Part shown: one piece after another, positions 6,574-27,770 of the stretch | Numbering within the stretch: position 1 is the stretch's first letter | How the letters are laid out: the number at the start of each line of letters is the position of its first letter | Assembly: GCA_964452145.1 (NCBI GenBank) | Contig: CAYVLA010000037.1 | Coordinates: 1 to 28,266 of the forward strand | Direction: 5' to 3' | DNA: 28,266 nucleotides | Source: Candidatus Hadarchaeota archaeon | GTDB lineage: Archaea > CAYQAE01 > CAYVLA01 | Translations under genes and position numbers: made by a program | The notes under the pieces: model-generated | Seen by the model: the letters and a program-made list of their open reading frames with translations, nothing else | What the model was told of the DNA's origin: nothing | Databases searched by the model: none

Positions 6574-8469
6574 CTAGTCCCTCTTGGATGCAAGGGCGGC
6601 AGCCCTGGTCACCAGATTCTTGATGGCCTTCAAGCTGGGGGGCCTGGAATGCCAGCCGTGCCACATTTCCCAGATCTCCTCAAGGACACTATTGTCGGGG
6701 TCGGGGTAGAGCTCCAGATACTCGTCGAGAGAGCTATCCATGTGGTTGGCGTATCTTCCCGCTGTGTTCAGGCACGCCCTCACGTATGCCCAGGCAGAGT
6801 AGAACAGGGCGTAGCCCAGGGCGTCGGCCAAGTTGGGAGTGTCGTAGGGAAGATACCCCTCGTTGGACGTTCTCCAACGGTCCATTTCGGCCTGGACCGA
6901 GGAGGGCTCGTGTGATGCCAAGTTGTGCCAGTTGCCTAGGTTGATGGCCTCGAGCATTCGGTCATCCGGCATGCGCGCTACATCTGCAAGCCTGAGGAGG
7001 AGGCTCTTTGCCGCCGGCTTATTCCTGCTCCCGGGTTGGGTCAGATCCACTTGCGCAAGGGCAGCCTTCGAGGGATACAGTTCGTTGTCCACGAGGCCTT
7101 GACGTGCGGCCTCCCTGAGGGTCATCATGAAGGTATCCATGTTCAGGATCTCGACCTCACTGGGCAAGGACTTGAGGTTCTCGACCAGATGATCCAGCAC
7201 CCCACGCGCAATCTGGACAAACGCGAAGATGAACAGGGGCCTCTCCCTGAGCGAAGTGGCCATGTTGGCGACTCTTCGGGCGCAGTCCTCTCCAACGTTA
7301 AGGACCAGAGATGAATGGACTTTCGGGGTCCCTTTGGGGTAACTTGTCGCGTAGACCGATCCCCCCAGCCCGCAGACCAGGCCGACCGGCTTGAGGATGC
7401 GTTTCTCGCGGTACACTGCCTGCGGGTTCTCAACCTCCCGCCACCAGAAATTTGTGTCCCAGTTGACCATATTGGCCACGATCTGACCGCTCAGATCCAT
7501 GTAGTGCTTTGAGTAGTGAAGATACCAGTCGTCATGGAGGAAGCTGTATGTATATCCAGCGCCCGAGGACGGGCAGACGAAGTAGTCCCGCTCCGTGGCG
7601 GTTTCGTAGTAGTACTCCAGCATACCGGGGGCGATGTCGTAGAGCAGAGGCAGTAGGCCCCAGTTGAAGGGGAGGCTTCCGCGCCCGCTGCTGAGCCAGT
7701 TGTTGCTCTGCAGGTTGTTCATGGCCCATATGGCGTCGCCGTCTGTCATGTAGAGGGTGAGGTAGATCTTCTTCTCGATTCCGTCAACCGGCTTAGGGGG
7801 CCTCTGCACGTATTTGGCTCTTACTGGTGGGATGCCCCCGTGGACGGTCAGATTTGGGGCATGGGCACTGCACAGAACGAAGAAGCCCTTCTTGGCCGCC
7901 CGGGCGACGTATTCTTTCTCTTGATCCCTGGCGCAGTGCCAGCCCATGAGAACCCCGGGGGATTCCAGATCCTCCAAGATCTGGTCGAAGAGCAGGTTCT
8001 CCTCCCTGTCGCGCCGTGCTGCGGAGAGATGGATGACCAAGGATCTGTTCGCGACCAGGTAGTCAATGATTCCTGTGCTGTTCTGAATCCAGTTCTTCCT
8101 CTTCCCCACACAAAGAGACCCTAGGATCCGCTTGTTGCACTTTGGCAGCAGTTCTTCCCTTGCCCATGAGTACGCCGAGATCCTGTCATCGAACTTGCCT
8201 TCAAGGTCCCTCCTCTGCTTCAGGCCGCAGGACTCAAGTTCTGAGGCAAGGTCGCCCGCAGCGGGTATCAGGTCTTCCAGGCCGGCTATGGTTACGGCGA
8301 GGTTTGCGGTGTCGGGGACCGACGTATCGAAGATGACGGTGCCCCGGGCAGCGTGTCCGTGGAGCCTGAGAAGATCCATCGGATCGCTGATGCGCTCGTT
8401 CGGAACTCCGAACTTCGCCCTGTAATACTCGAGCCAATGCTCGTCCCAGGGGCCCGTAATCTGGTACAT
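6574..8469 (-). CDS. GxGYxYP-family-like putative glycoside hydrolase
   Basis: Carries a GAGYTYSF motif (GxGYxY[S]) within CPSSGAGYTYSFLHDDWY. It is a large soluble protein with no signal peptide. The listed ORF extends to 8745, but those 92 N-terminal codons are R/P-rich, non-protein-like and overlap the next gene. The start was therefore placed at the internal ATG (MYQITGPWDEHW). Confidence 0.45.
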   Translation of the reverse strand: MYQITGPWDEHWLEYYRAKFGVPNERISDPMDLLRLHGHAARGTVIFDTSVPDTANLAVTIAGLEDLIPAAGDLASELESCGLKQRRDLEGKFDDRISAYSWAREELLPKCNKRILGSLCVGKRKNWIQNSTGIIDYLVANRSLVIHLSAARRDREENLLFDQILEDLESPGVLMGWHCARDQEKEYVARAAKKGFFVLCSAHAPNLTVHGGIPPVRAKYVQRPPKPVDGIEKKIYLTLYMTDGDAIWAMNNLQSNNWLSSGRGSLPFNWGLLPLLYDIAPGMLEYYYETATERDYFVCPSSGAGYTYSFLHDDWYLHYSKHYMDLSGQIVANMVNWDTNFWWREVENPQAVYREKRILKPVGLVCGLGGSVYATSYPKGTPKVHSSLVLNVGEDCARRVANMATSLRERPLFIFAFVQIARGVLDHLVENLKSLPSEVEILNMDTFMMTLREAARQGLVDNELYPSKAALAQVDLTQPGSRNKPAAKSLLLRLADVARMPDDRMLEAINLGNWHNLASHEPSSVQAEMDRWRTSNEGYLPYDTPNLADALGYALFYSAWAYVRACLNTAGRYANHMDSSLDEYLELYPDPDNSVLEEIWEMWHGWHSRPPSLKAIKNLVTRAAALASKRD

Positions 8470-8644
8470 CCGGGGCTCGGTCCGGTTGGTGAGTCCCTGG
8501 AGCGCGCCCAGAGCAAGCCTCTTCTCCCAGCTGAGGCCAGCCGGGCAGAAGACCTTCAGGTTCCTGGGTCTCGGGAAGGCGGGGAATATCCTTGGAAACG
8601 GCACGGAGATCCGGGCAACGCCGCCGGGGAGGTTGTTAACTGTT

Positions 8645-9166
8645 TCATGGCGTCGGAGGCCTCTGCCGGAGATCCTTGACGGCCTGCTCGAGGTCGTGCA
8701 CTCTGGAGGCCAGTTCCTCGGCATGTGCCGCAAGGTTCTCGGCAATCCTCGTCGCGCTCAGCGAGCTCTCCCCGATCGCCAGCAGCTTCTCGTTCAGTTC
8801 GCGCAGCTGCTTGGTATCCAGCTTGGGGTGGGGATTCCCCTCAAGCCTATGGGTCTCATTCAAGACAGAGGCTATCCCCGCAAAAGCCTTCGAGAGATCC
8901 GCGCCCAAGTGGCTAGAGTCGGCCTTCAGGCCCTTCAGCGTGTCCTTCATATCGCTGACGGAGCGGGATATCAAGCCCCGCCGCCCCTCAAGGGTCGCAA
9001 AGTCGAGCAGATCCCCCAGCCTGCTGGTCTCGGTCTTCGCGGCGGAAACCCTTCTCAAGACGAGGATGGACACCGCGACTGCAAGACCAGCCAAGACCGA
9101 TGATATCAACGCAACTGCGAAAACTGCGCCCTCGTTCATCTCGCGCGGTGGAGCGTGAAGCAGCAT
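8645..9166 (-). CDS. Membrane-anchored coiled-coil protein (hypothetical)
   Basis: N-terminal TM helix AVFAVALISSVLAGLAVAVSILVL, followed by heptad-like Leu/Glu/Lys-rich sequence. 6-nt gap to the upstream surface-protein gene. Confidence 0.5.
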   Translation of the reverse strand: MLLHAPPREMNEGAVFAVALISSVLAGLAVAVSILVLRRVSAAKTETSRLGDLLDFATLEGRRGLISRSVSDMKDTLKGLKADSSHLGADLSKAFAGIASVLNETHRLEGNPHPKLDTKQLRELNEKLLAIGESSLSATRIAENLAAHAEELASRVHDLEQAVKDLRQRPPTP

Positions 9167-9172
9167 TAAAAT

Positions 9173-11758
9173 CTATCTGACCGATCCTCGTCGCGACACC
9201 GCCAGTTGTGCTGCAAGGAAGATCAGCATCGCGGGGCCCGGGATCGCCTCCTCGGGAATCGCAAGGGCGATGTCATCTAGGTACACCGTGCCGGAACCGA
9301 GGAGGGAGATCCTCAGGGATTCTAGGCGCGAACCGAAGGTCCACCCCAGATCTGCCAGAGGAATGCGCAGACTGGTCCACACACCGGGAGCGAGACCCCC
9401 TAGTGCCTTCACCGAGACGGACCTGGTGGCTCCGGGACCGGTCTTCGTGATCACCATATCCGTCACGGTCGCGTTCCCCGGGTTCACAGATACGAGAAGA
9501 TCGTCGAAGCCCCAGAGGGTGAATGCCCATGGATCGGGAGCCTTTAGCTGGACGATGCAGTATCTCTCGAAGGATATCCTCTGGCACCTGCCTTGGTTGA
9601 CCATATCCGTCGAATACGGATCCACTGTGGCCTGCAGACTCTCCACAGTCCAGCCTTCCTCGAGCTGGTCTCGATAGATGACCAAGTCATGGCGGGGTGG
9701 ATCAAGGTCCGGCACCCCTTCGAGAACGTACAGATCCGTTCCCCTGGAGAAGTAGATCCTGCCGTCCAGGCCCAAGGTCATGTCCGACCCCCCCGCAGAC
9801 AGCTCCTCGAAGCCGACGCTTTCCCCAGGGTAGCAGAGGATCTTCATCCTGAAGACGGCTCTGGAGCTTATGCCGTAGATGAAGCCGTCCGGCGCGGCCC
9901 TCATCCGGATTATGCTGCCAACTGGTGAGGCCTGCTTGTGAATGATGGTGCCCTCCATCGGATCGTAGACGAAGAGCGTCGTCCCGGCGCAGCCGTAGAT
10001 TCTGCCGTCAGGCGCCGTGACCAGGCTCTGTATCCGGTCAACCCTTGGGGCGGGTATCATGTCCATGACGACCTTCCCCTGCCTGATGTCCCATGCGAAG
10101 AAGTGGGCCTCGGTCTCCACGGCCGGAATTCCGCCCCCGGCTTCGGTGCTTGAGCCTCCGTAGATGACCCCTCCGTCCAAGCTCAGCGTCAGGGAGACAA
10201 CGCTCTGGTTTGGAATGATGTGTCTGTGAACCTGAAAACCATCCGTTGTGGGGTCGTATATCGACAGGGCCCCTCCCAGCTTGCCGTAGGTCGGGATGCT
10301 CCCTATGTAGATCCTTCCATCGGCCCCAGCGACCAGCCCTGGTGGTCTGTACTGCTCGTCCCCGACGGGTCCGATCTTGCGCGGATTGGAGTCGGCGGTA
10401 GTCCCGGGGTTCCATGCCTTGGATGGGTCATAGACGCTCAGAACGGAGTGGGTATACGAGGCCATGTACAGCTTGTCGCCATGGGACGCGAAGCTGTAGA
10501 ACTCACCGCTTGCACCCGGAATGGGAACGCCGAGGTCGGTCAACTCCTCCTTTGAGGGATCGTATCTGAATAGATGAAGGAGGTTGTATACTCCGCCATA
10601 GACACAGCCATCCGGGCCAGTGCCCAAGCTGAAGATGTTCATTCCATCCCCGTCCCGGCCGATGTCGACCTGGCCGAGGTAGGCGGATTCTCCGACGTTG
10701 TACGCCCAGCAGGACCGGGAGTCTATTCCGTAAGCAATGCCCGTCTCCTCGTCATACCGGCCGTATGCGGGCACGTCGTAGGGCTCCAGGCGCCGGGCTG
10801 TCTTGTTGTACTTCATTAGGCCCCCTGGCAACCCCGAGATCAGGACAGGACCGCCCTGAGCCTGTCGCAGGATGTATGCCCCGCCGCCGCTGGGGTTACT
10901 CACCTCCATGAGGAGTTCGTACGTATCGGCATCGAAGATCAGCACGATCGTGTCGAAAAGGAGGTAGGCGTAGACGACGTTGTCCTCCGACTCAACCGTG
11001 TAGGCGAATGAGTTGTCCTTGTACCGATCCGGTAGGATGCTTTTGTTCGTCTCGGTCTCGGGGTCATAAACCACCAGGTCTGCTCTGGACCCTATGCCGC
11101 AGAAGATCTTCCCGTTGTCCGCAACTGCCAGATCCCTGCAGTACTGCTCAGTCGGATGCATCCGGCCGAGGTCCTGTATCCTGTCCGTTGAAGGATCGAA
11201 CACGACGACCTTTGCGTTGGGATAGGTGGCACCATAGATACGTCCATCAGGACCTGTTTGCAGCGTCCAAACAAAGGATTCCCCCGCTGCCGATCCGTGG
11301 TCCACCACCTCGCCCACGACTGGGTCGAAGCTGAAGATTCTGCCCTCCATTATCGTGCCTATGTAGATCCTCCCGTCATGGCCCTGACACAGACCATATG
11401 CTCCCTGCGATCGTGCTAGGGCGAAGTACTCGGCACCTCCTCTGGCATAGTCGTAGCGGATCAGCCTGGCCCACCCGGCATCGGTGTAGGTTCCCGCATA
11501 GAGCACCGGCCTGCCGGTCTGGCCGTCCCTAACGAGCAGACTGTCCCAGATCGTCATGGACCTGACCGGTGTCCCCAGCTTCTTAGCAGTTGGCTGCGCC
11601 GTGACCAGTGAGACGCAGCCCAGAAGTAGAATCCCGATGACCAGCCCCACGGATGCACCGTGCTCCGATGGACATACGATGATCAGATCCGTCACCAAGG
11701 CCGGTTTCAATCGAGAAAGCCGTGATATCTCCCCATCCAGTAGGGCAGGAGGAAGCAT
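9173..11758 (-). CDS. Large secreted/cell-surface protein with multiple YVTN-type beta-propeller repeats and a PGF-CTERM-like C-terminal anchor
   Basis: At least 8 repeats of the pattern DGRIY[IG]G...(V/L)xVYDP. An N-terminal hydrophobic h-region (VGLVIGILLLGCVSLVTA) and a C-terminal tail (IPGPAMLIFLAAQLAVSRRGSVR) resemble an archaeosortase sorting signal. Start is uncertain. ATG 11758 overlaps the upstream gene by 51 nt. TTG/GTG at 11698/11695 or ATG 11557 are alternatives. Confidence 0.6.
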   Translation of the reverse strand: MLPPALLDGEISRLSRLKPALVTDLIIVCPSEHGASVGLVIGILLLGCVSLVTAQPTAKKLGTPVRSMTIWDSLLVRDGQTGRPVLYAGTYTDAGWARLIRYDYARGGAEYFALARSQGAYGLCQGHDGRIYIGTIMEGRIFSFDPVVGEVVDHGSAAGESFVWTLQTGPDGRIYGATYPNAKVVVFDPSTDRIQDLGRMHPTEQYCRDLAVADNGKIFCGIGSRADLVVYDPETETNKSILPDRYKDNSFAYTVESEDNVVYAYLLFDTIVLIFDADTYELLMEVSNPSGGGAYILRQAQGGPVLISGLPGGLMKYNKTARRLEPYDVPAYGRYDEETGIAYGIDSRSCWAYNVGESAYLGQVDIGRDGDGMNIFSLGTGPDGCVYGGVYNLLHLFRYDPSKEELTDLGVPIPGASGEFYSFASHGDKLYMASYTHSVLSVYDPSKAWNPGTTADSNPRKIGPVGDEQYRPPGLVAGADGRIYIGSIPTYGKLGGALSIYDPTTDGFQVHRHIIPNQSVVSLTLSLDGGVIYGGSSTEAGGGIPAVETEAHFFAWDIRQGKVVMDMIPAPRVDRIQSLVTAPDGRIYGCAGTTLFVYDPMEGTIIHKQASPVGSIIRMRAAPDGFIYGISSRAVFRMKILCYPGESVGFEELSAGGSDMTLGLDGRIYFSRGTDLYVLEGVPDLDPPRHDLVIYRDQLEEGWTVESLQATVDPYSTDMVNQGRCQRISFERYCIVQLKAPDPWAFTLWGFDDLLVSVNPGNATVTDMVITKTGPGATRSVSVKALGGLAPGVWTSLRIPLADLGWTFGSRLESLRISLLGSGTVYLDDIALAIPEEAIPGPAMLIFLAAQLAVSRRGSVR

Positions 11759-13800
11759 GTGCCTTCTAGGGCCGATCGGCCCTCGGATCCGCCGTCCAGG
11801 ATGTGGAGATTGCCTGCCCACTCGCCCACCGGCCTCTCGTCGGCCGGAAGGGGCTCCGTTGCCGAGTTGGGTCGCTGGGCGTCCAGGGTCACATCCGATC
11901 TGTGGCTGTTCCTGACCGTCCAGCTGATCAGATCGAGCGGGTAATCCCCCAACGTGTCTGCCGCAGCCTCGATATCGTGAGGGGTTCCCATCACGGCTGA
12001 TGTGATGATGTTCCATAGCGAGTTCCGCTGCCCCCTGATCTGGTGCCAGGTTCTCTCAAGGCTCAGCAGGTAGATCTGGCGAAGGGCCGGATCGTCCTCG
12101 TATCGAAGGAGCGGGTAGTAAGCCAGATAGGCAAGCCTGTCGTCGTGCCAGACTTGGTGTCCCAGAACGGTCTGTCTCTGCTTGATGGTGTTGATGGCAT
12201 AGTGGTGCTTGGTGGCTAGCTGACGGTATCTGTCCAGATAGGTCTCATCACCGGTCAGGTGATTGGCCGACCTCAGATAAGACAGAATCTCCAGGGAGTT
12301 GAGGCCCCTCTGCATGCGCCATCGGTCGTCGTGGTTCAGTCTCTTTGGGGACCAGACGCCCCAGGTGGTTGGCTCTCCATCCAGGTCTACCAGGAAATAA
12401 TCGTGGGTGATGATGTGGTCGGTGAGCCTCTTGGCATATTCTTCCAGCAGCTGTCTCTCCCGCTTCCCGGCCACCAGATCATAGTAGATCGTCATGGCGA
12501 AGTAGTGCCCATCGATCTCGTCCGAACTTGTATCGCCCTTCCATTCCCACTCACCGTCCGGAGTCGGATGCCATTCGGGATGACCATCTCCGAACCCGGC
12601 TTCTCCCCTCCCTCTGATGGCTCTGGCCGGGAAGCCCGGTATCCCCGTGACCTGCTCAAGTCTCATTAGGGCATCCAGGGACTCGCGAGCGAAGGCCTTG
12701 GCTTCCGCATCCTGTGTCACGGAGTATCTGAAGGCTTCTGCCGCGATGTACAGGCTCGTCCAGAGGCCGTCGTTGTCGGAGATTCTAACCTGGCCTGACG
12801 AGATCTCACCCGGGGCGCTGAGCACGCGCCCCGTCACAAAACCGATTCGGGTGTGATACTTCCTGACGGTTGCCTCATACTGGGAGGCCTTCTCCTCCAA
12901 GGTCATCTGCACGGATTTCAAGTGCGATATGCCCCCGCGAGTGGCTACGAAGGCCTCCCCGTCACCTAGGGGGAGAATATCCGTGACTTGGTCGCTCGGA
13001 AGCCATCTCCTCGAGGCAAAGTACTTCCACCGGCCCTCCTTAAGCAAAATAACTCCCGAGTTGGTCCCGAACCAGTGGTCGCCCCACGGGGTGACCTTGG
13101 TTAGGCGCACATCCTCCTGGGGAAGACCGTCCTCGCCCCTCAGAGAGCACCAACCATCCCCGCCTGCGTAGATGGATATGCCCCTGTCTGTTCCAACCCA
13201 GATATGCCCTGCCTCGTCGGGCACCGCGCAACGGGTATCGTTGCTCAGCATGCCCTCCTCCCTGGCTCTGACCACGAACCAGTATGGCCGTTTGCCCTGA
13301 AGGAAGAACAGCCCACGGCTGGTGGCCGCGACGGCCCGGGACCCTTCCTCTCCCAGACATCTGAAGTCCCGATACTCCATTCCTCGGGCCTCGGTTCTTC
13401 TGGCATGCGTCCAAGACGAGCCATCGAACCTCCAGAGTCCGTCCGGCGCACATACCCACAGTGCCCCCGAGGAGTCAATATCAGCTTTGAGGCCGGCTTC
13501 GGGTCCCTCGGATACCGACCATGATGTCCCATCGTAACAGAGAAGCGCTCCGTCCGACGCGGCAAAGACGCGGTTTCCATATTGGATGATCAGATCAACC
13601 GATCCCTGGGGCCATCCGTCAGAGCTGGCATGCTTCCACCCGCCTTCTTGCTTGATGGAGATGCCGCGCTCGGTGCCCGCCCAGATGGCATCCCCTACCC
13701 GGGATAGCACGTTGACGCAATTCGATGGAAGACCGGATGACGAATCATGGAACTTCCTCGTCCACTGCCGATACCACCTTCGGCCGTCTGTCTGCGGCAT
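11707..13800 (-). CDS. Reg_prop (two-component-regulator-type) beta-propeller repeat protein with a C-terminal (alpha/alpha)-toroid-like putative carbohydrate-active domain
   Basis: N-terminal repeats WAGTERGISIKQEGGW, WVGTDRGISIYAGGDGW and WFGTNSGVILLKEGRW. C-terminal half is rich in Trp/Tyr/acidic motifs typical of glycan-binding toroid folds (DNDGLWTSLYIAAEAF, WEWKGDTSSDEIDGHYF). ATG at 13800 with a TTAATAG box about 25 nt upstream. Confidence 0.5.
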   Translation of the reverse strand: MPQTDGRRWYRQWTRKFHDSSSGLPSNCVNVLSRVGDAIWAGTERGISIKQEGGWKHASSDGWPQGSVDLIIQYGNRVFAASDGALLCYDGTSWSVSEGPEAGLKADIDSSGALWVCAPDGLWRFDGSSWTHARRTEARGMEYRDFRCLGEEGSRAVAATSRGLFFLQGKRPYWFVVRAREEGMLSNDTRCAVPDEAGHIWVGTDRGISIYAGGDGWCSLRGEDGLPQEDVRLTKVTPWGDHWFGTNSGVILLKEGRWKYFASRRWLPSDQVTDILPLGDGEAFVATRGGISHLKSVQMTLEEKASQYEATVRKYHTRIGFVTGRVLSAPGEISSGQVRISDNDGLWTSLYIAAEAFRYSVTQDAEAKAFARESLDALMRLEQVTGIPGFPARAIRGRGEAGFGDGHPEWHPTPDGEWEWKGDTSSDEIDGHYFAMTIYYDLVAGKRERQLLEEYAKRLTDHIITHDYFLVDLDGEPTTWGVWSPKRLNHDDRWRMQRGLNSLEILSYLRSANHLTGDETYLDRYRQLATKHHYAINTIKQRQTVLGHQVWHDDRLAYLAYYPLLRYEDDPALRQIYLLSLERTWHQIRGQRNSLWNIITSAVMGTPHDIEAAADTLGDYPLDLISWTVRNSHRSDVTLDAQRPNSATEPLPADERPVGEWAGNLHILDGGSEGRSALEGTCFLLPYWMGRYHGFLD

Positions 13801-15512: not shown

Positions 15513-15653
15513 CCGATCAACCTTTCCCCAGCGTCAGCGTTGCAGTGCTCCCGCGCCTTGGGGTCGTTGACCGCATCGGTGATCCTTAGTCCTTGGTCCT
15601 TAGCATATATTTTTCAGCGGAATCCAAGGCGCTTCCCAAGGAGGTCAGGGAGC

Positions 15654-16646
15654 TTGGACAGAATCAGAATCGGAATCATTGGGCTCGGACGCGGCCAGAG
15701 CCATGCTCGCCGGGTTGCCGCATCACAGAGATGCGAACTGGTGAGCATCGCTGATATAGTGGAGGATGCCGCGAAGTCCGCGGCTCAGGAGCTTGGAGCG
15801 TCAAGCCACTACAAGGACTATCACGACATGCTCGAGAAGGAGCACCTGGATGCGGTCATCATCTCCACCCCCAACCACCTCCACGCCCCGATGTGTTTGG
15901 CGAGCATGAAGGCCGGCCTTCACGTGATGGTCGAGAAGCCCATGTGCAACACGATGAAGGAGGCCGACGAGATGCTCAAGGTCGCAATGAAGACCGACCG
16001 CAAGCTCTACGTCGGCTACAACTACAGATGGAACCCCGCCTACCAAAAAACCAAGGAGATGCTCTCCTCCGAACAGATAGGAAAGCTGCTGTATGCCAAC
16101 TGCACCATCAAGACCTGGAGGGCCAAGAGCTACTACGATGCCGCGGGTTGGAGGACCCGTTGGGAAACCCAAGGCGGAGGAGTTCTGATGAACCAGGCAA
16201 CCCACCATCTGGATTCGCTCCTGTGGTGGATGGGCGAGGTTGACATGGTCGTGGGTTTCTGCGAGAACCTCTACCACGACATCGAGGTGGAGGATACCGG
16301 GAGCGCCATCATCAAGTTCACATCCGGGGCCACCCTCAACTTCATGGCCAGTACGGCCGTACAAGGGTCGCTCGCACCTCCGTTTGAGTTCAATGGCACG
16401 GAAGCCACGCTGTCTTTCGGGATGGGAGGCCTTGTAGTGCGGAAGAAGGACTGCAAGGAGTGGGAGAAGGTCGAGCTCGTGTCCAGCGATGACAACACGA
16501 CCCTGCAACTGAACGCCTTCATCGACTCAATAGTCAACAACACCCAGCCCGCCGTGTCTGGGGAAGATGGCCGCAGGGCTCTGGAGCTTTCCTTGGCCAT
16601 CTACAAATCATCCAAGACGGGACGCCCTGTCAAGCTACCTCTCTAG
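15654..16646 (+). CDS. Gfo/Idh/MocA-family NAD(P)-dependent oxidoreductase (sugar/inositol dehydrogenase-like)
   Basis: Rossmann start IRIGIIGLGRGQSHA. Family motifs EKPMCNTMKEADEM and GGGVLMNQATHHLDSLLWWMGEV. Start reassigned to TTG 15654, which is in frame and 8 nt downstream of a strong AAGGAGGT. The listed start at 15540 has no Shine-Dalgarno. A possible ATATATTTTT box lies at 15605-15615. Confidence 0.8.
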   Translation: MDRIRIGIIGLGRGQSHARRVAASQRCELVSIADIVEDAAKSAAQELGASSHYKDYHDMLEKEHLDAVIISTPNHLHAPMCLASMKAGLHVMVEKPMCNTMKEADEMLKVAMKTDRKLYVGYNYRWNPAYQKTKEMLSSEQIGKLLYANCTIKTWRAKSYYDAAGWRTRWETQGGGVLMNQATHHLDSLLWWMGEVDMVVGFCENLYHDIEVEDTGSAIIKFTSGATLNFMASTAVQGSLAPPFEFNGTEATLSFGMGGLVVRKKDCKEWEKVELVSSDDNTTLQLNAFIDSIVNNTQPAVSGEDGRRALELSLAIYKSSKTGRPVKLPL

Positions 16647-16844
16647 TCTCGCTTTGGGTTCCTTCTGCGCCTGTTGAGACCCATCCGCGATCGTCCGCTC
16701 GCTATTGGGCCCCCGGGTCCATACCGCGTTGAGCCTCCCCCGGGAATGCCGGAGAGTCGGGGCCTGTAGTTATGAGGACTCTCGGAGCCTTCTGCTCCAG
16801 CTTCGGGCTCGGGTGTTACCCCTTTGCGCGCTGTGCCTGCGCCC

Positions 16845-16860
16845 GATACTTTTAATAGAA
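16845..16860 (+). promoter_or_regulatory. TATA-like box (CTTTTAATAGAAAG) for the encapsulin operon
   Basis: AT-rich box about 35-40 nt upstream of ATG 16892. A GAGG element lies 8-11 nt upstream of the ATG. Confidence 0.4.
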
Positions 16861-16891
16861 AGATCACCACGATCTGGACGAGGCAGGTACT

Positions 16892-17254
16892 ATGCCTGAA
16901 TTTCTCAACCCTTTCAGCGGATTGATCCCCGATCGGAAACTGACTCTGAGGGAACTCACGAGAGCCCTCAGGCTGTCTTTGGCAGCTGAGGAGGAGGCCG
17001 TACATCTTTACGAGGCCCTTGCAGACGCTGCGGACAACGAATTGGCAAGGACCGTTCTTCAAGACATTGCGGATGAGGAGAAGGTGCACGCGGGAGAGTT
17101 CCAACGCCTCTTAAGCAATCTGCTTGGGAACGAGGATGCCCTGCTCTCCAAGGGAGCCGAAGAGGTGAACGAGATCGCCGAGCGAGTGGGAGCAGGACCG
17201 CTGAAGGAAGAACCTGATGGGGCGATACCTACCGTGGGCAACATGAAGGAGTAG
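16892..17254 (+). CDS. Encapsulated ferritin-like protein (EncFtn/Flp-type cargo) with a C-terminal encapsulin-targeting peptide
   Basis: Two ExxH di-iron-site motifs (EEEAVHLYEALADAAD and DEEKVHAGEFQRLL) match the EncFtn pattern. The C-terminus (…PTVGNMKE) resembles known cargo-loading peptides (TVGSL[KR]-like). It lies immediately upstream of the encapsulin gene. Confidence 0.75.
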   Translation: MPEFLNPFSGLIPDRKLTLRELTRALRLSLAAEEEAVHLYEALADAADNELARTVLQDIADEEKVHAGEFQRLLSNLLGNEDALLSKGAEEVNEIAERVGAGPLKEEPDGAIPTVGNMKE

Positions 17255-17268
17255 CGAGGTGATATGAC

Positions 17269-18069
17269 GTGTCGAAATACTTGAACAGGGGCGATGCACC
17301 TTTCGATTCCAAAGTCTGGCGGCGAATCGACGAGGCCGTTGTGACTGCCGCGAAGGGCCAGCTGTCGGGAAGGAAGCTGCTGGAGGTCGAAGGACCCTAC
17401 GGGCTTGGTGTGAAGTTCCTAACCGGTCCCGATGTGGTCAGTGAGGAGGCTTCCCCAACGATCTCGACAAGCCACGTCCTGCCACTAGTCTCGATTCGAC
17501 AGAGCTTCACCTTGGCTTCCAGGGACATCGCAGCTTTTGAACAATATGGATCCGAACTCGATTTGGGCTCTGCCGCAAAGGCGGCAGTGGATTGTGCGCG
17601 AAAGGAGGACGAGCTGATCTTTTCGGGTTCGAAGGCAATTGGAGCAGACGGCATACTGACATCAAAGGGAACCCAGTCGGTCAAGCTCCAACCCTGGACA
17701 AAGATAGGGGCTGCGGCTGACGATGTCATACAGGCAGCAACGGTCCTTGACGATGCGGGGTTTCATGGACCGTATAGACTAGGGCTATCGTCCAAATGCT
17801 ACAACATGCTCTTCCGTCGCTATCCCCAAGGGAATTCTACGGAGATGGATCACATCAAGTCGGTTGTGCCCGGTGGAGTGATCAAGGTGCCAGCCATGGA
17901 CTCCGGCGGCGTGCTCGCGGCGACCGGGCGTCAGTATGCCTCCATAGTTATAGGACAAGACCTAATGACGGGCTTCGTCGGCCCAACGGGAAGCGGTTAC
18001 GAGTTCACGGTTACCGAAAGCCTCGCACTGAGGCTGATCGAGCCAGCAGCCATCTGCGTGCTGAGATAG
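17269..18069 (+). CDS. Family-1 encapsulin nanocompartment shell protein (Linocin M18-like, HK97 fold)
   Basis: 266 aa. N-terminus (SKYLNRGDAPFDSKVWRRIDEAV...GRKLLEVEGPYG) is co-linear with the Thermotoga maritima encapsulin N-terminus ([23 protein letters not shown]...GRKFVDVEGPYG). GTG start at 17269 with GAGGTGA 6 nt upstream. Confidence 0.85.
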   Translation: MSKYLNRGDAPFDSKVWRRIDEAVVTAAKGQLSGRKLLEVEGPYGLGVKFLTGPDVVSEEASPTISTSHVLPLVSIRQSFTLASRDIAAFEQYGSELDLGSAAKAAVDCARKEDELIFSGSKAIGADGILTSKGTQSVKLQPWTKIGAAADDVIQAATVLDDAGFHGPYRLGLSSKCYNMLFRRYPQGNSTEMDHIKSVVPGGVIKVPAMDSGGVLAATGRQYASIVIGQDLMTGFVGPTGSGYEFTVTESLALRLIEPAAICVLR

Positions 18070-18084
18070 GGTTAACCCTTTCTT
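18069..18084 (+). terminator. Terminator-like element: 10-bp perfect palindrome GGGTTAACCC followed by TTTCTT
   Basis: Immediately follows the encapsulin TAG stop. A second hairpin GGCAG-GGCCA-CTGCC lies about 35 nt further downstream. Confidence 0.35.
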
Positions 18085-18432
18085 GGAATCGCTCGGCAAA
18101 CGAGGTGGCAGGGCCACTGCCAAGCAGGTCGTCCGCCAGCTAAGGGATATGTGCTAAACCCGGCAGACTCCCCCCATATCCCGTCGAATGAGGCCTGCCT
18201 CTAGGACCCTGCGTTAAAGCAGGAATGGATCCGAACCGTGAGGTGACCGCGGCCGGATGATAGGGATTCCGAGAATCGGATACATCGTGCTTCATTGCGC
18301 CTGCGACAAGGTTACCATTTCAACGGGCGAAGCACGAATTCCGTGGCTAAAGACCTGAACCTTGGCCCAGCCCCGGCCCCGGCCCGGGAACAATTATTAG
18401 GTCACGAGTCCTCTGTCGACACAGGTGATGGC

Positions 18433-20684: not shown

Positions 20685-21947
20685 TCAACCGTCTTCCGAG
20701 TCAACCATCGAATCCAGCAATAGGTTCTTCATCTCGGAACAGACTTCCGGGCGATCGTTCGCGAGGTTGGTCGCTTCCGACGGATCGGCCGCAAGATCGA
20801 ATAGCATCTCGCGGCCGAGCCCCGCCGTCGCGAACACCTCCCCCGGTGAGTAATCACCCGACCACGGGGTGTTTCCAATGGACCTATGATAGATGTACTT
20901 CCATCTGCATGTGCGGACCGCCTTGATCGCCGTGCCTCTGTATTCGCAGAACTCCATGAATACAGCATCATGAATCTTTGACTTGGAGCCTCGCAGAATG
21001 TCTGCTAGGGTGGCTCCATGGCAGGAACGAGGAACCGGCAGGTTGAGAAGATCGAGAAGGGTGGGCATCACATCACAGATCTGCGCCAGACAGTAGAGCT
21101 TGATGTTACCCTTTAGAACGCCGGGCCATGAGAACATCACCGCGGTGCGCATCAGGGGGTCGAATAGGAAAGGAGGCTTCTTACAGAAGAAGTGTTCCCC
21201 GAGGAACACGCCGTGGTCGCCGACCAAGATGGTGATCGTGTTATCCGAAAGGCCCAGCTTGGCTAGAGCATCGCTCAGCCTTCCGATGTTCAGGTCCACG
21301 AAAGCGACCTCACCGTCGTAGAGCGCCATGAGATGGCGCCTTTCCCGCTCCGTCATCTCTGGCTCATACATTCTGGGACAACTAACGTCCCTCCCCGAAT
21401 AGCCCGGGTCAAAGACGGTGTCGAAGGGCTTGGGAGGACGCCAGGGCTCATGGGTGGACTCATAGTCAACCCACAAGAACCATGGGTCCTGGCCGCGCTC
21501 GGCCATCCATTCGATCGCGGCGTCCGTGATACGGGAGGTGATGTGCTCGGCCTGGCCGCCGGGTAGGTGGTTGCTCAATCCTGGACCTGGGCTGGCAGGC
21601 CATACCTGATGGAACCCCCTCTCCAAGCCCCTATCCATTTTGGGCGTGGCTCCGGCCACAAAGCCGGCCTGCGACAGTGACTCGGCCAAGGTGTGTTCGT
21701 CTGGATTCAGAGGCGCATCATTCACCCTCAGACCGTGTGAATGGGGGAAGCGCCCCGTCATTATGCTGGCACGCGAGGGCGCGCTCGATGGCATGGGGCA
21801 GAAGGCCCTCTCCAACATGACCCCGGATTGCGCGATGCGGTCAATGTTCGGGGTCTGGGCTTCCGGGTTGCCCCCGCAGCCCAATCGATCTGGGCGCAAG
21901 GAGTCGACCATTATCATCAGCACGTTTGGGATGTTCAACTCTGTCAT
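20685..21947 (-). CDS. Sulfatase (arylsulfatase family), Ser-type active site
   Basis: N-terminal PNVLMIMVDSLRPDRLG. Active-site signature SAPSRASIMTGR, i.e. S-x-P-x-R-xxxx-TG with Ser, not Cys, at the formylglycine position. Start placed at the ATG giving MTELNIPNVL, as in cytoplasmic sulfatases. The listed frame runs to 22235. Confidence 0.8.
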   Translation of the reverse strand: MTELNIPNVLMIMVDSLRPDRLGCGGNPEAQTPNIDRIAQSGVMLERAFCPMPSSAPSRASIMTGRFPHSHGLRVNDAPLNPDEHTLAESLSQAGFVAGATPKMDRGLERGFHQVWPASPGPGLSNHLPGGQAEHITSRITDAAIEWMAERGQDPWFLWVDYESTHEPWRPPKPFDTVFDPGYSGRDVSCPRMYEPEMTERERRHLMALYDGEVAFVDLNIGRLSDALAKLGLSDNTITILVGDHGVFLGEHFFCKKPPFLFDPLMRTAVMFSWPGVLKGNIKLYCLAQICDVMPTLLDLLNLPVPRSCHGATLADILRGSKSKIHDAVFMEFCEYRGTAIKAVRTCRWKYIYHRSIGNTPWSGDYSPGEVFATAGLGREMLFDLAADPSEATNLANDRPEVCSEMKNLLLDSMVDSEDG

Positions 21948-22262
21948 CCAACCACTTCCCCACGTAACGGCCAATGAATAGATTTCGTGCTCATCGCCAT
22001 TGGTCCGAGACTCCGCTATGACGGGTCTCATTCCCGTCCTTTGGGTAGCCCGGATGGGAGAAGATTCCAGCTGTGATCCGATGCACAAGACCGGGGTTGC
22101 CAGATCTGGAAAGCCACCCGATGACATGGTGCGAGCGCGTTCCTGAAACAAGAGGAGGCATATCATCTCGACGGATATACTGGCAGGCAAGAGAACCGGC
22201 CTTGAGAAACATTTTCGAGGCCGAAACCAGGGCATCTCTCCACAGTGAATCTGAACATCTGC

Positions 22263-23852
22263 ATGGGCTCGCTGTTGGGCTTTCTTCTTTGCGCGGCGCT
22301 GGGAGGCATGGCATCTGGAGTTGAAGTGGGCATATCTGTGAATTCCAGACAGGACTACGGAGACCTAATCTTCCCGCCAGGAGAGCATGTCATCGACTTT
22401 TTGATATCCGGGCAAGGTCAGGAGACGCCATCTTCGATTCTCGAGGTCTCATTGACTCGTCTGCATCATGCCCCTGAGCATCGATTCCAGCACCCCCTTC
22501 CCGAGCTAGACCCCGGTCGGTCCTTCCATGTGTCCATTCCTCTGCGTTTGTTGGATCCCGGGCTCTACTCGGTGGAGTGGAAGATGACCGGATCGAATCT
22601 GGCGGTCGGCGGAAGGGGACCGGACCTCAGAGTGAGCCCCACCACGAATGCCTGGCAGAAATGGCGTCTGGGCGAATGGCCTGGCAATCGAAGCCGCCTG
22701 TTGCTAGCGTTCTACTACCCCTGGTACGGCACCCCGTCGGGTCCAAGCGGGGGCTGGGTCCACTGGAATCCCGCGAGTGGGTACGATTCGACCCATGTAC
22801 CGATCATAGGATTCTACGATTCAAGGTCTGACGATGTGATACGCTACCATGTGCGAGTGGCTAAAAGCGTGGGATTGACCGGCTTCATCTCATCATGGTG
22901 GGGTCCGGGCAACTACATAGATGACGGTTTCTCCAAGCTGCTTGAGATCGGATCGCACGCGGGGTTCAACTGCACTGTCTACCTTGAGAACGCGAACACA
23001 GCGGATGATCTCTACCACCAGCTTCGCTACATCCTGACCCGCTACGGTGCTCAGCCGGGCTTCTTGAGATGGAATGGCAAGCCCGTCGTATTCATATACA
23101 GCAGGGTGATCAATTCGCTCGACCTGCAGATCTTCGCGGAGGTCTTCTCAAGGCTCGAGGCGGAGGGCCTCCCGGCATTCTATCTGGCGGATAGGCTCGA
23201 CGAGAGCTACCTCACGGTCTTCGATGGGATACACAGCTACAGCCCGCTTTCCGTGTTGGGCAAGTACCCCTACCTAGCCCGCAGGTGCAGGGAATTGGGG
23301 AAGGTCTTTGCCGGCACAATAGCACCCGGCTACGACGACACGATCATCAGGCATCCAGGGCTGGTCATCGATAGGGGGAACGGCTCCTACTACCAGGATG
23401 GGTGGGAGATGTTGATGGTCTCACAGCCCGACTGGGTCCTCATCACCTCTTGGAATGAGTGGCATGAGGGAAGCGAGATCGAGCCGAGCTTGGAATTGGG
23501 CGACTTCTACCTCAACCTGACGAGCACGTACTACCGGCTCTTCGAGGCCGGCCAGCTGACGGACAGGCTGGCAGGCCGAATTGACGAGGTCTCCACGCTT
23601 TTCCAGACGTCAAGGGATCTGATCCACGCGGCCGAGTCAAAGGGCATGGATGTTAGATTGATGAGGCGTGACTACTCGATAGCCGAAAATGCGTGGGAAC
23701 GATACGACTATGACCTAGCAAAGATGTACCTGCAGAGAATCGTTAACCGAGGGGAGGAGATCGGGGAGGTTGCAGAACACTTTCTACTCATTCTCTGCCC
23801 GTCGGCGCTGTGTCTGTGGCGATTGCGATCAGATCACGCCGATCCTGCGTAG
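22263..23852 (+). CDS. Secreted glycoside hydrolase family 99-like protein with an N-terminal Ig-like region
   Basis: Signal peptide MGSLLGFLLCAALGGMASG. Motifs FYYPWYG...WVHWN and ITSWNEWHEGSEIEP match GH99 hallmarks as recalled from memory. GTG 22245 is an alternative start. Confidence 0.5.
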   Translation: MGSLLGFLLCAALGGMASGVEVGISVNSRQDYGDLIFPPGEHVIDFLISGQGQETPSSILEVSLTRLHHAPEHRFQHPLPELDPGRSFHVSIPLRLLDPGLYSVEWKMTGSNLAVGGRGPDLRVSPTTNAWQKWRLGEWPGNRSRLLLAFYYPWYGTPSGPSGGWVHWNPASGYDSTHVPIIGFYDSRSDDVIRYHVRVAKSVGLTGFISSWWGPGNYIDDGFSKLLEIGSHAGFNCTVYLENANTADDLYHQLRYILTRYGAQPGFLRWNGKPVVFIYSRVINSLDLQIFAEVFSRLEAEGLPAFYLADRLDESYLTVFDGIHSYSPLSVLGKYPYLARRCRELGKVFAGTIAPGYDDTIIRHPGLVIDRGNGSYYQDGWEMLMVSQPDWVLITSWNEWHEGSEIEPSLELGDFYLNLTSTYYRLFEAGQLTDRLAGRIDEVSTLFQTSRDLIHAAESKGMDVRLMRRDYSIAENAWERYDYDLAKMYLQRIVNRGEEIGEVAEHFLLILCPSALCLWRLRSDHADPA

Positions 23853-26418: not shown

Positions 26419-26796
26419 TCAGATCTCCTCGGGGTTCATGCCGATGCTTAGGATGCTGCACGCGAGCACCGGGTTCAGGCCAATGCTCTTCGCTTCCCTG
26501 ACCAGCAACTCCGATTCCGCGCCGGGGTTCACGAAGAGGAGCTTGACGCCCTTCTTTGCTATGTCTCGCAGGAGCGTGGTGCCCACCTCGGGATTCACGT
26601 ACAGGGAGGCAGCATCGAGCTTGCCCGGGACCTCGGCGATCGATCTGTAGGCTCTTAGGCCCTCGATCTCCGTGTCCCGAAGGCTAACCGGGAATACCTT
26701 GTAGCCCTTGGCCTTGTAGGCCCTCACAGCCTTGTTGCTGTATCTGTTCCTGTCGCTTGAGGCCCCGACTATCGCTATGGAACGGAAGCGCTCCAA
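26419..26796 (-). CDS. CoA-binding domain protein
   Basis: Motif SIAIVGASSDRNRYSNKAVRAYKAKGYKVFPV. Start at the TTG giving LERF, behind GAGGTGG. The listed TTG at 26865 is an alternative. Confidence 0.6.
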   Translation of the reverse strand: MERFRSIAIVGASSDRNRYSNKAVRAYKAKGYKVFPVSLRDTEIEGLRAYRSIAEVPGKLDAASLYVNPEVGTTLLRDIAKKGVKLLFVNPGAESELLVREAKSIGLNPVLACSILSIGMNPEEI

Positions 26797-26915
26797 GAAA
26801 CCACCTCGTTGCGGGCAAGCCGCCCCTGGTGCGGCGTAGCCGATCAACCCGTTCTCAGAGGGCAAAGCAAATAAGTGTTGCCCGCTCGAAGAAAGCGCAG
26901 TGGAGTGAGTCAGGT

Positions 26916-27770
26916 TTGGTCAGAGTCAGAACGGCTTCCGGCAGTCTTCAAAGCTTCAACCCGAGGAAGATACACCGCACCTGTGTGAGGGCCGGGGCAA
27001 GTCCCGAACTGGCTCGGGCCGCTGTGGAAGAGGTCAGGACCCATCTGTATGAAGGGATGTCGACCGAGAAGATCCTGCAGATAGTTCTCGACTACTTGGA
27101 AGAGCACCAAGCTGCGGACGTGGCTAGCAAGTATGACCTGAAAAGTGCAATAATGAGGATGGGCCCGGCTGGCTTCGCCTTCGAGACGTTCCTTTCCCAG
27201 GTGCTTGGGGAGTACGGCTATCAGACACAGCTAAGGCAGAAGGTCAGGGGGCGATGCGTTGAGCACGAGATCGACATCATCCTCCTTGCTCACGGCGTGA
27301 GATCGATGGTGGAGGTGAAATACCATAACGCTTCCGGGATCTACACGGGACTCAAGGAGGCAATGTACACCTACGCGCGCTTCCTGGATCTCAGGGAAGG
27401 ACACCAGGACGGGACCTGCGAGAGGTTCGACGAGGCCTGGCTTGCCAGCAATACGCGGAGCTCTCGAGAGGCAAGGGCATATGCCGCGTGCAAGGGGATA
27501 AGGCTGCTTGGCTGGAGATACCCCCCGGCCAGGGGGCTGGAACGAATGATTGAGGACAAGTACCTGTATCCCGTCACTGTCCTGCGCTCCATGGACTCCG
27601 ATGCATTAAAGGCGCTCAGCCGTGCAAACATGATGTTGACAAAGGACCTCATATCCAAGGAACCGAAGGAGATCGCGAAGGATACCGGTCTGCCTCAGGA
27701 CAGGGTCGATACCCTCGTTGAACAGGCTAGACATCTTGCCGCACACTCTCCGCAAGCGTACAGAAGCTGA
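26916..27770 (+). CDS. ATP-cone domain fused to an Mrr-like restriction-endonuclease-fold domain
   Basis: ATP-cone-like N-terminus (VRVRTASGSLQSFNPRKIHRTCVRAGAS...). PD-(D/E)xK-like region (EHEIDIILLAHGVRSMVEVKY). TTG start 7 nt downstream of GGAGTGA. Confidence 0.55.
   Translation: MVRVRTASGSLQSFNPRKIHRTCVRAGASPELARAAVEEVRTHLYEGMSTEKILQIVLDYLEEHQAADVASKYDLKSAIMRMGPAGFAFETFLSQVLGEYGYQTQLRQKVRGRCVEHEIDIILLAHGVRSMVEVKYHNASGIYTGLKEAMYTYARFLDLREGHQDGTCERFDEAWLASNTRSSREARAYAACKGIRLLGWRYPPARGLERMIEDKYLYPVTVLRSMDSDALKALSRANMMLTKDLISKEPKEIAKDTGLPQDRVDTLVEQARHLAAHSPQAYRS

Follow-up and report, generated by a model that had tools for sequence, protein, structure and literature searches.

A classical two-gene encapsulin operon with a ferritin-like cargo on a probably archaeal contig

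Two small adjacent genes on contig CAYVLA010000037.1 raise the question of whether they encode a classical encapsulin nanocompartment, with cargo and shell as separate proteins, and whether this compartment belongs to an archaeon. We analyzed the entire stretch of 28,266 nt, which makes up the complete contig (hereafter, the window). Both open reading frames (ORFs) are located on the plus strand and are co-directional, at 16892–17254 and 17269–18069, as seen in the ORF list and in the raw sequence. A preliminary description of this DNA had presented them as two tightly linked, unfused genes, and this layout is confirmed: the upstream gene (16892–17254, ATG start, 120 aa) ends with a TAG stop codon at 17252–17254, and a spacer of 14 nt (17255–17268) separates it from the downstream gene (17269–18069, GTG start, 266 aa). 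With a probability of about 90%, we consider the pair to be a family-1 encapsulin system of the “FLP with targeting peptide” type (FLP, ferritin-like protein), in which the first gene encodes an EncFtn cargo and the second gene the HK97-fold shell; the cargo loading, function and origin that we propose for it are discussed below.

The downstream protein matched the Pfam family Linocin_M18 (PF04454) over its full length (E = 4.9e-70, 236.1 bits, cutoff 24.3), and its residues 5–265 corresponded to positions 1–261 of the equivalog model NF041155 encap_f1, with a score of 241.9 bits (cutoff 100). Its sequence matched 37 distinct solved encapsulin sequences in the Protein Data Bank (PDB); the best matches were the shells of D. 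quercicolus (5.6e-44), M. xanthus EncA (2.7e-40) and Q. thermotolerans (1.1e-36), and the T. maritima shell was found at 3.4e-23. The AlphaFold2 model, built from 40 homologs, has a predicted local distance difference test (pLDDT) score of 88.8 and a predicted template modeling score (pTM) of 0.83. Foldseek aligned this model to more than 40 solved encapsulin chains with template modeling (TM) scores of 0.82–0.89, the top matches being M. xanthus EncA chains. The fold is of the HK97 type and has no extra domain, i.e., no scaffold or delta domain and no N-terminal extension of the family-2 type, within the 266 residues. The N-terminus MSKYLNRGDAPF agrees with the consensus of the homologs, which supports the GTG start. 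Judged by its sequence and its modeled structure, the 266-aa protein is a family-1 (classical) encapsulin shell. A profile search and an AlphaFold prediction aimed at the HK97 fold had been proposed as checks in the preliminary description, and both came out in favor of an encapsulin. Its statement that the shell is co-linear with the N-terminus of the T. maritima encapsulin agrees with the alignment of the two proteins, which is near-gapless (query residues 3–265 against residues 2–263 of the chain in 3dkt), but the nearest solved relatives are of the M. xanthus type and not T. maritima.

The upstream protein passed the NCBIfam model NF058679 EncB_fam (103.9 bits, cutoff 90), and its sequence matches in the PDB were M. 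xanthus EncC (1.3e-15) and P. furiosus EncFtn (5.8e-14). In the AlphaFold2 model (pLDDT 81.6), helices span residues 19–46, 50–78 and 81–98 and are followed by a low-confidence tail. The fold of the monomer model is that of a half-ferritin, with two long antiparallel helices and a short C-terminal helix. The structural neighbors found with Foldseek were exclusively EncFtn proteins: 5n5e (TMt 0.81), 7s8t (0.82), 7s5c/7s5k, 5da5 and 5n5f. The ferroxidase center of R. rubrum is formed by E32, E62 and H65, with Y39 nearby (PMC11202242), and the equivalent residues of the window cargo, E33, E63, H66 and Y40, align with their counterparts in EncC and P. furiosus EncFtn. Helix 1 carries E33 (the ferroxidase-center Glu), E35 and H38 (at the C/entry-site position) and Y40 within 16988–17011 (plus strand; roles according to PMC11202242), whereas helix 2 carries the motif D58-x3-E62-E63-x-V65-H66 (17063–17089, plus strand), in which E63 (the bridging Glu) and H66 are the ferroxidase-center ligands according to the alignments. 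All six residues, E33, E35, H38, Y40, E63 and H66, show no variation in an alignment of 36 closely related sequences. By analogy with the characterized enzymes, the di-iron site would be composed of E33 together with E63/H66 from each of two monomers. The ferritin-like nature that had been proposed for this ORF is borne out by the EncB_fam score, the structural matches and the conserved ferroxidase-center residues. The preliminary description had named two findings that would speak against the encapsulin reading, the lack of an encapsulin/HK97 profile match and the lack of ferritin-like di-iron geometry; the profile searches, models and alignments revealed the match, as well as the EncFtn fold and the conserved residues from which such a geometry is predicted.

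It should be noted that ExxH occurs literally at two places in the cargo, E35-A-V-H38 (16994–17005) and E63-K-V-H66, which had been taken for two di-iron motifs. The second string, E63xxH66, is canonical, whereas E35 and H38 are located at the position of the secondary C/entry site and are not a canonical ligand pair. E35 occupies the position of the conserved Glu34 of this site, and the residue corresponding to R. rubrum E31 is Ala (A32) in the cargo, which is a common replacement (PMC11202242). In the R. rubrum enzyme, the mutations E31A and E34A raise the activity. The position of H38 is occupied by Asn in M. xanthus EncC and P. furiosus EncFtn, whereas H38 is invariant in the clade of the window cargo. 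As far as the alignments indicate, E35/H38 may constitute a modified, His-containing gateway site, i.e., a clade-specific variant of metal gating, and the clade-invariant E35xxH38 is a small variation that can be of use to studies of metal gating in EncFtn proteins. Bacterial EncFtns have the helix-2 motif HXXXEE62XEH65, and for the archaeal fusion type the motif is DXXXEE62XA(T)H65 (PMC11202242); the DxxxEExVH of the window cargo resembles the archaeal-fusion variant, and bacterial members of the clade have it too.

The cargo residues 99–120 have low pLDDT. Residues 99–110 (17186–17221, plus strand) make up a flexible linker, with pLDDT of about 50 (below 50 at residues 105–111), that is gapped in the alignments and varies in length and sequence among the cargo homologs. 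It leads to the C-terminus ...AIPTVGNMKE, in which IPTVGNMK (17225–17248, plus strand) is the targeting (cargo-loading) peptide, as suggested by motif conservation and by published peptides. The motif [IV]P[TS][VI]G[DNS][ML][KR] is kept in 13 of 13 related loci and in 36 database homologs, and G116 is invariant. The M. xanthus targeting peptides are RLTVGS(N)L(M) for EncC and PLTV(I)GS(T)L for EncB (PMC11202242, Table 2), and the T-V-G-N-M of the window cargo fits the EncC peptide. The resemblance of the PTVGNMKE tail to cargo-loading peptides, noticed earlier from the letters alone, is in agreement with both this conservation and the match to the EncB/EncC peptides. The first hydrophobic position of the L/F-x-V/I-x-x-L/I tag type is Pro in the cargo, with Ile before it, and this variant is clade-wide. 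No other ORF in the window carries the targeting motif, and no additional tagged cargo was found there.

The pairing of the two genes was studied in 13 related loci from genome and metagenome collections and in four more contexts, counting the loci for which upstream DNA was available. In every such locus, a cargo homolog (119–135 aa, 55–71% identity) is encoded immediately upstream of the shell gene. Most members of the clade are bacterial (Planctomycetota, Lentisphaerae, Armatimonadota, Chitinispirillales and Chloroflexi, along with contigs that encode ECF/sigma-70, OmpA or Mur ligase genes). Archaeal contexts are represented by L015/L016, from Bathyarchaeota metagenome-assembled genomes (MAGs; NIP66986.1 etc.), and L017/L018, from a metagenome contig that encodes Alba. 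The operons of these loci resemble that of the window in having an unfused cargo of 120–121 aa, a shell of 267–268 aa, spacers of 13–15 nt and an A/T-rich box at a similar upstream position; identity to the window proteins is 56–62% for the shell and 64–71% for the cargo, and they group with the window in a neighbor-joining (NJ) tree. They differ in genomic GC content (44–47% vs. 59%) and in their neighbors, which are ferritin, rubrerythrin, Usp or desulfoferrodoxin genes, whereas the window copy is located among sugar-metabolism genes. The unfused arrangement is therefore not unique in archaea, as it occurs in at least two other archaeal-context loci. A short cargo–shell spacer was considered as an archaeal signature and rejected, since the spacer of the bacterial locus L022 is also 13 nt.

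For the size of the cage, the evidence points both ways. The shell is 266 aa long, like the solved T=1 shells (264–266 aa), and it lacks the insertion of about 10+2 residues in the E-loop region that is present in the shells of D. quercicolus, M. xanthus and Q. thermotolerans (278–287 aa). The E-loop region (about residues 45–80; 17401–17508, plus strand; pLDDT 70–75) is short in the PDB alignments and has a T=1-like length. A T=1 cage is somewhat favored by these sequence features. Several observations speak against it, however: this assignment uses the length of the protein and the size of the E-loop only, whereas the sequence itself is closer to the T=3/T=4 shells (30–33% identity) than to the T=1 shells (24–28%), and the T-number is hard to trace to primary sequence (PMC8802124). 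A larger T=3/T=4 cage (180/240 subunits, 32–42 nm), like that of M. xanthus EncA or Q. thermotolerans, is a serious alternative, although we consider it the less probable one. It draws on the three best solved-shell matches and on the top Foldseek matches described above, and on the similarity of the cargo and its tag to M. xanthus EncC/EncB, which are cargos of a T=3 shell. The length of 266 aa and the missing insertion are at odds with it; the structure search does not discriminate, as T=1 and T=3/4 shells match the model equally well (TM scores of 0.86 for the T=1 shell of H. ochraceum and 0.84 for that of T. maritima); and M. xanthus EncA itself also makes T=1 particles (entries 7s21 and 8v4n).

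The second question concerns the host. Short introns in multiple copies within a tRNA gene are an archaeal trait, found mostly in the TACK group. On the minus strand, at 1951–2056, an Rfam search detected a tRNA (43.5 bits) whose acceptor, anticodon and T stems are all perfect but which was missed by ARAGORN. Two stretches of 19 and 22 nt stand where the model has 3 and 3, making the D-loop region longer by about 16 nt and the anticodon loop by about 19 nt; the sequence TTAAATAAAT at 2080–2089 lies 24–33 nt upstream of the tRNA 5′ end, which is the distance of a TATA box. These features suggest an archaeal tRNA with two introns, Glu-UUC or Lys-UUU, and its sequence also resembles archaeal tRNA-Glu. 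When splice positions were enumerated and ARAGORN was re-run, the anticodon depended on where the cuts were made, with Lys-UUU, Glu-UUC and others among the outcomes, and inspection by eye gave no clear bulge-helix-bulge motif in this tRNA. At the other end of the window, an ATP-cone/AF1548-like protein (26757–27770) has named homologs that are almost all archaeal, and the three closest copies of the operon include those on the Alba-encoding contig and in Bathyarchaeota MAGs. These signals are spread along the contig, at 2, 17 and 27 kb. An archaeal host is favored by the tRNA with two inserts, by the homologs of the AF1548-like protein and by the closest operon copies, and additionally by A/T boxes, rare in the window, at promoter distance from the operon and from the tRNA; the sequence evidence indicates that the contig is probably archaeal, and the archaeal-type context claimed in the preliminary description is plausible on the same grounds.

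A bacterial contig, e.g., from Planctomycetota or a relative, with an ordinary bacterial EncFtn encapsulin that is of no taxonomic interest, is improbable, although two observations point in this direction. Most shell relatives at 50–61% identity belong to bacterial MAGs or lie on contigs that carry sigma-70/ECF, OmpA or Mur-ligase genes, and the sulfatase, GH99, GxGYxYP, FG-GAP/ASPIC and GFO/IDH/MocA genes of the window look Planctomycetota-like, such a toolkit being typical of Planctomycetota-like degraders of (sulfated) glycans. The two short tRNA inserts that ARAGORN cannot call, the almost exclusively archaeal homologs of the AF1548-like protein and the source of the closest operon copies run counter to a bacterial host, as does the presence of a TATA-like box upstream of the cargo gene, where no sigma-70-type promoter was found. 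The glycan toolkit may reflect either bulk acquisition of bacterial genes by the archaeon or a bacterial host.

Under an archaeal host, the complete operon was probably acquired from bacteria by a TACK/Bathyarchaeia-like lineage, the direction of transfer being suggested by the tree. In the NJ tree, the window and the two archaeal-context loci form a group within the bacterial radiation; this tree has no support values, which counts against leaning on it heavily. The 2021 census by Andreas & Giessen (PMC8346489) suggests, in general terms, transfer of encapsulins from bacteria to archaea, and the NJ placement fits such a transfer. No compositional evidence of recent transfer was seen, as the GC content of the operon equals that of its flanks. 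We also considered a bolder proposal, that the clade is a distinct EncFtn subclass (E35-x-x-H38 in place of ExxE, A32 in place of the first Glu, and DxxxEExVH in place of HxxxEExEH) and that archaea acquired this bacterial-type operon under a TATA promoter. We regard this combination as speculative and rather doubtful; if true, the subclass would imply metal gating unlike that of the characterized R. rubrum and M. xanthus enzymes.

It is also conceivable, but highly improbable, that the 120-aa protein is a free cytosolic rubrerythrin- or ferritin-like protein, involved in peroxide or iron handling, with a tail that is no loading signal. The profile results contain points for this view and against an EncFtn cargo: the best Pfam match of the protein is Rubrerythrin (37.8 bits), and in two of the three EncFtn-specific profiles it fell below the cutoff (TIGR04535, 75.4 vs. 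125; PF22277 EncFtn-like, 20.4 vs. 27). In addition, homologs of about 100 aa that lack the tail are present in the database. However, the protein makes up just half of a four-helix bundle and lacks a rubredoxin domain, its structural neighbors are exclusively encapsulated ferritins, the conserved motif in its tail matches targeting peptides that were defined by experiment, and its gene always directly precedes that of the shell. The homologs of about 100 aa are numerous (e.g., P0272, P0293, P0298 and P0345), with 75–80% identity to the cargo core at a coverage of about 81–85%; both linker and targeting peptide are missing from them, which marks them either as truncated gene calls or as paralogs that have no tag and resemble “s-FLP”. 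Finally, the shell protein could be imagined as the major capsid protein of a degraded prophage or virus next to an unrelated ferritin-like gene, given that encapsulins and capsids have the HK97 fold in common and that weak matches to a PHROG major head protein (phrog_264, 28 bits) and to Pfam Major_capside (21.5 bits, below the cutoff) exist, but this can be dismissed since the encapsulin equivalog score is about 10 times higher (242 bits), Pfam and PHROG scans found no terminase, portal, protease, scaffold or tail genes in the window, the cargo–shell pairing and the targeting peptide are kept across at least 13 loci, and the GC content is the same as that of the flanks.

We now return to the encapsulin operon and its small elements. 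A TATA-like box, TTTTAATA, is located at 16850–16857 (plus strand), 35–42 nt upstream of the cargo ATG, and is a putative archaeal promoter element. It is one of nine A/T-only runs of at least 7 nt in the 28-kb window, five of which are intergenic and another of which is the run upstream of the tRNA, and A/T-rich boxes are found upstream of the cargo gene at similar positions in the archaeal-context loci L015 (GATAAAATTATAAG) and L017 (AATAAAATTATTATATG). This census of A/T runs was used instead of a comparison of the upstream regions of all genes, which was abandoned as uninformative because mechanically called ORF starts are unreliable. Two of the nine runs, at 15605–15614 and 18392–18399, lie just inside the 5′ ends of the called ORFs of GFO/IDH/MocA (15540) and DUF4432 (18295), whose Pfam domains start at residues 42 and 84, respectively. 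The true starts of these two genes are probably about 35–50 nt downstream of the runs, in which case the runs are further candidates for TATA-like promoters. Shine-Dalgarno (SD)-like sequences precede both genes of the operon on the plus strand, GAGG (16880–16883) 8 nt before the cargo ATG and GAGGTGA (17256–17262) 6 nt before the shell GTG, inside the 14-nt spacer; their role in translation is presumed, and GAGGG is also present in the cargo–shell spacers of L015 and L017. The TATA-like box and the SD sites had all been listed in the preliminary description and are present in the sequence.

The same description had placed a palindrome followed by a T-tract right after the shell stop codon. 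The letters are there (GGTTAACC and CTTTCTT, 18070–18084, plus strand), but the role of a terminator did not hold: a consensus terminator scan found no plus-strand terminator after 18069, and GGTTAACC can pair into a 2-bp stem only. The motif is also not kept in L015 or L017. The terminator was rejected as evidence of an autonomous unit for these reasons, and 18070–18084 is at most a weak oligo-T termination signal. The autonomy of the unit rests on the 245-nt gap that separates the cargo gene from an upstream GFO/IDH/MocA oxidoreductase gene, the gap of at least 225 nt between the shell gene and a downstream DUF4432 gene, and the TATA-like box. Independent transcription of the pair is plausible from this layout; a point on the other side is that, since the terminator scan was negative, there may be read-through from and into the neighbors on the same strand. 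Four antisense or overlapping ORFs, 16643–17104 and 17397–17729 on the minus strand and 17796–18143 and 16705–16899 on the plus strand, had no Pfam matches and were treated as spurious.

The neighbors of the pair in the window are related to sugars, as described earlier for this DNA and as found in Pfam scans: they include GFO/IDH/MocA oxidoreductases, DUF4432, xylose-isomerase-like TIM barrels, a sulfatase, GH99 and GxGYxYP. No functional meaning is read into this placement. In bacterial sister loci, the pair is found within islands that encode Fur, rubrerythrins, desulfoferrodoxin, AhpC, ferritin, Fe-SOD, Zip and Nramp. The islands of L020 (3391–16332) and L021 (8047–20813), both bacterial, are conserved over more than 10 kb around the operon and contain Fur, several rubrerythrins, desulfoferrodoxins, AhpC, thioredoxin, a multihaem cytochrome, ferritin, Fe-SOD, pyruvate:ferredoxin oxidoreductase and a Zip transporter, which looks like an oxidative-stress and iron regulon of anaerobes. 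The neighbors in the sister loci and in the archaeal contexts, together with the biochemistry of EncFtn proteins (PMC11202242), support iron oxidation and sequestration along with protection from oxidative stress. By analogy, iron sequestration and protection from oxidative stress are the likely role of the window pair, although Pfam and PHROG scans of its neighbors found no adjoining iron or oxidative-stress gene, which weighs against it. The only other metal-homeostasis gene of the window encodes a heavy-metal (copper-type) P1B ATPase with two N-terminal HMA domains (2126–4645, minus strand), about 12 kb from the operon. Elsewhere in the window, FG-GAP/ASPIC (11–817), GxGYxYP glycoside-hydrolase-like (6574–8745), sulfatase (20685–22235) and GH99 (22245–23852) genes were located. 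Two very large ORFs with an overlap of about 310 nt, 9173–12016 and 11707–13800 (minus strand; 947 and 697 aa), matched no Pfam or PHROG family, except for a weak Reg_prop repeat match in the second; the cause could be a wrongly called start, a frameshift, or a large protein of a novel kind that is secreted or built of repeats.

Based on these results, we propose the following model. By analogy with solved EncFtn structures, two-helix cargo monomers would pair so that E33, E63 and H66 of each chain build a di-iron ferroxidase center at the interface, with Y40 beside it, and five such dimers would form a ring-shaped decamer. During icosahedral self-assembly, IPTVGNMK on its flexible linker would dock in a hydrophobic cleft that the shell protein presents on its inner face, and the resulting cage would most likely be a 60-mer (T=1, about 24 nm). 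Fe(II) would enter through the shell pores, be oxidized by the cargo and be stored inside the shell as a ferric mineral, which would provide iron buffering and limit Fenton chemistry in a probably anaerobic archaeon. The pair would probably be transcribed alone from the TATA-like promoter at 16850–16857, in a TACK/Bathyarchaeia-like lineage that probably received the complete operon from bacteria.

Two-gene encapsulin systems of this kind are familiar from bacteria; the mechanism, architecture and likely role are textbook, and the archaeal-looking contig is the notable point. Targeting-peptide FLPs are predominantly bacterial, whereas fusion FLPs are the common archaeal form (PMC11202242), and among the entries listed in the portion of the Andreas & Giessen supplement available (PMC8346489), the archaeal ones are Flp-fusion only. 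A literature search for encapsulin together with Bathyarchae* returned no paper. NCBI curated models already name both proteins, and homologous pairs from Bathyarchaeota MAGs are in GenBank. Given that reviews describe targeting-peptide FLPs as bacterial and fusion FLPs as archaeal, the unfused archaeal EncFtn system is under-described, but it is not new in kind; the window contributes a further instance, probably an archaeal one, of the classical two-gene EncFtn encapsulin. Because the characterized archaeal encapsulins are fused and targeting-peptide FLPs are mainly bacterial, an unfused archaeal copy gives modest support to whole-operon transfer from bacteria to archaea.

Among the solved systems, the nearest are of the type of M. 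xanthus (structures 7s20, 7s2t, 7s8t and 7s5c). EncA has the same family-1 HK97 fold as the window shell (about 31–32% identity, TM score of about 0.87), and EncC is the closest relative of the cargo by sequence (about 43% identity in the structural alignment), with the same ferroxidase-center residues. In both systems, cargo and shell are separate genes, and the TVGNM of the window tag fits the EncC variants. EncA, however, has 287 aa with a longer E-loop region and is mainly T=3; M. xanthus has a bacterial host and several cargos (EncB, EncC and EncD), some of them encoded elsewhere; and EncC has HxxxEExEH and Asn where the window cargo has DxxxEExVH and H38.

The Flp-fusion encapsulins of P. 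furiosus and Crenarchaeota (PDB 2e0z and 5n5e) have an archaeal host, as is probably the case here. The EncFtn domain of P. furiosus is the best structural match of the cargo (TMt 0.81, 41% identity), and the archaeal fusion FLPs have the helix-2 motif D-x3-E-E-x-(A/T/V)-H in common with it. In the P. furiosus type, the EncFtn domain precedes the shell within one fused polypeptide, there is no targeting peptide, and the shell is T=3. Unlike this type, the window pair is not fused: it consists of two ORFs separated by a stop codon and the 14-nt spacer with its own SD-like sequence, and the cargo ends with a linker and a targeting peptide. The shell part of 2e0z matches residues 107–265 of the window shell only (E = 1.2e-13).

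A two-gene operon in which the cargo gene is followed by the shell gene is also found in T. maritima with its Flp cargo (3dkt and 7kq5) and in the EncFtn systems of H. ochraceum and R. rubrum (7odw, 5n5f and 5da5). Their shells have about 264–266 aa and the same E-loop length, their T=1 architecture is the likely analogue, and the decameric EncFtn logic and the C-terminal loading peptide also apply by analogy (PMC11202242). In sequence, these systems are more distant: identity of the shells is only 24–28%, and the EncFtn proteins of R. rubrum and H. ochraceum are below the sequence-search threshold for the window cargo and match it by fold only. The T. maritima tag is GGDLGIRK-like and that of R. 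rubrum and H. ochraceum is SLGIGSLK, vs. IPTVGNMK in the window, and the ExxE entry site of R. rubrum (E31/E34) is represented in the window cargo by A32/E35, with H38 one turn later.

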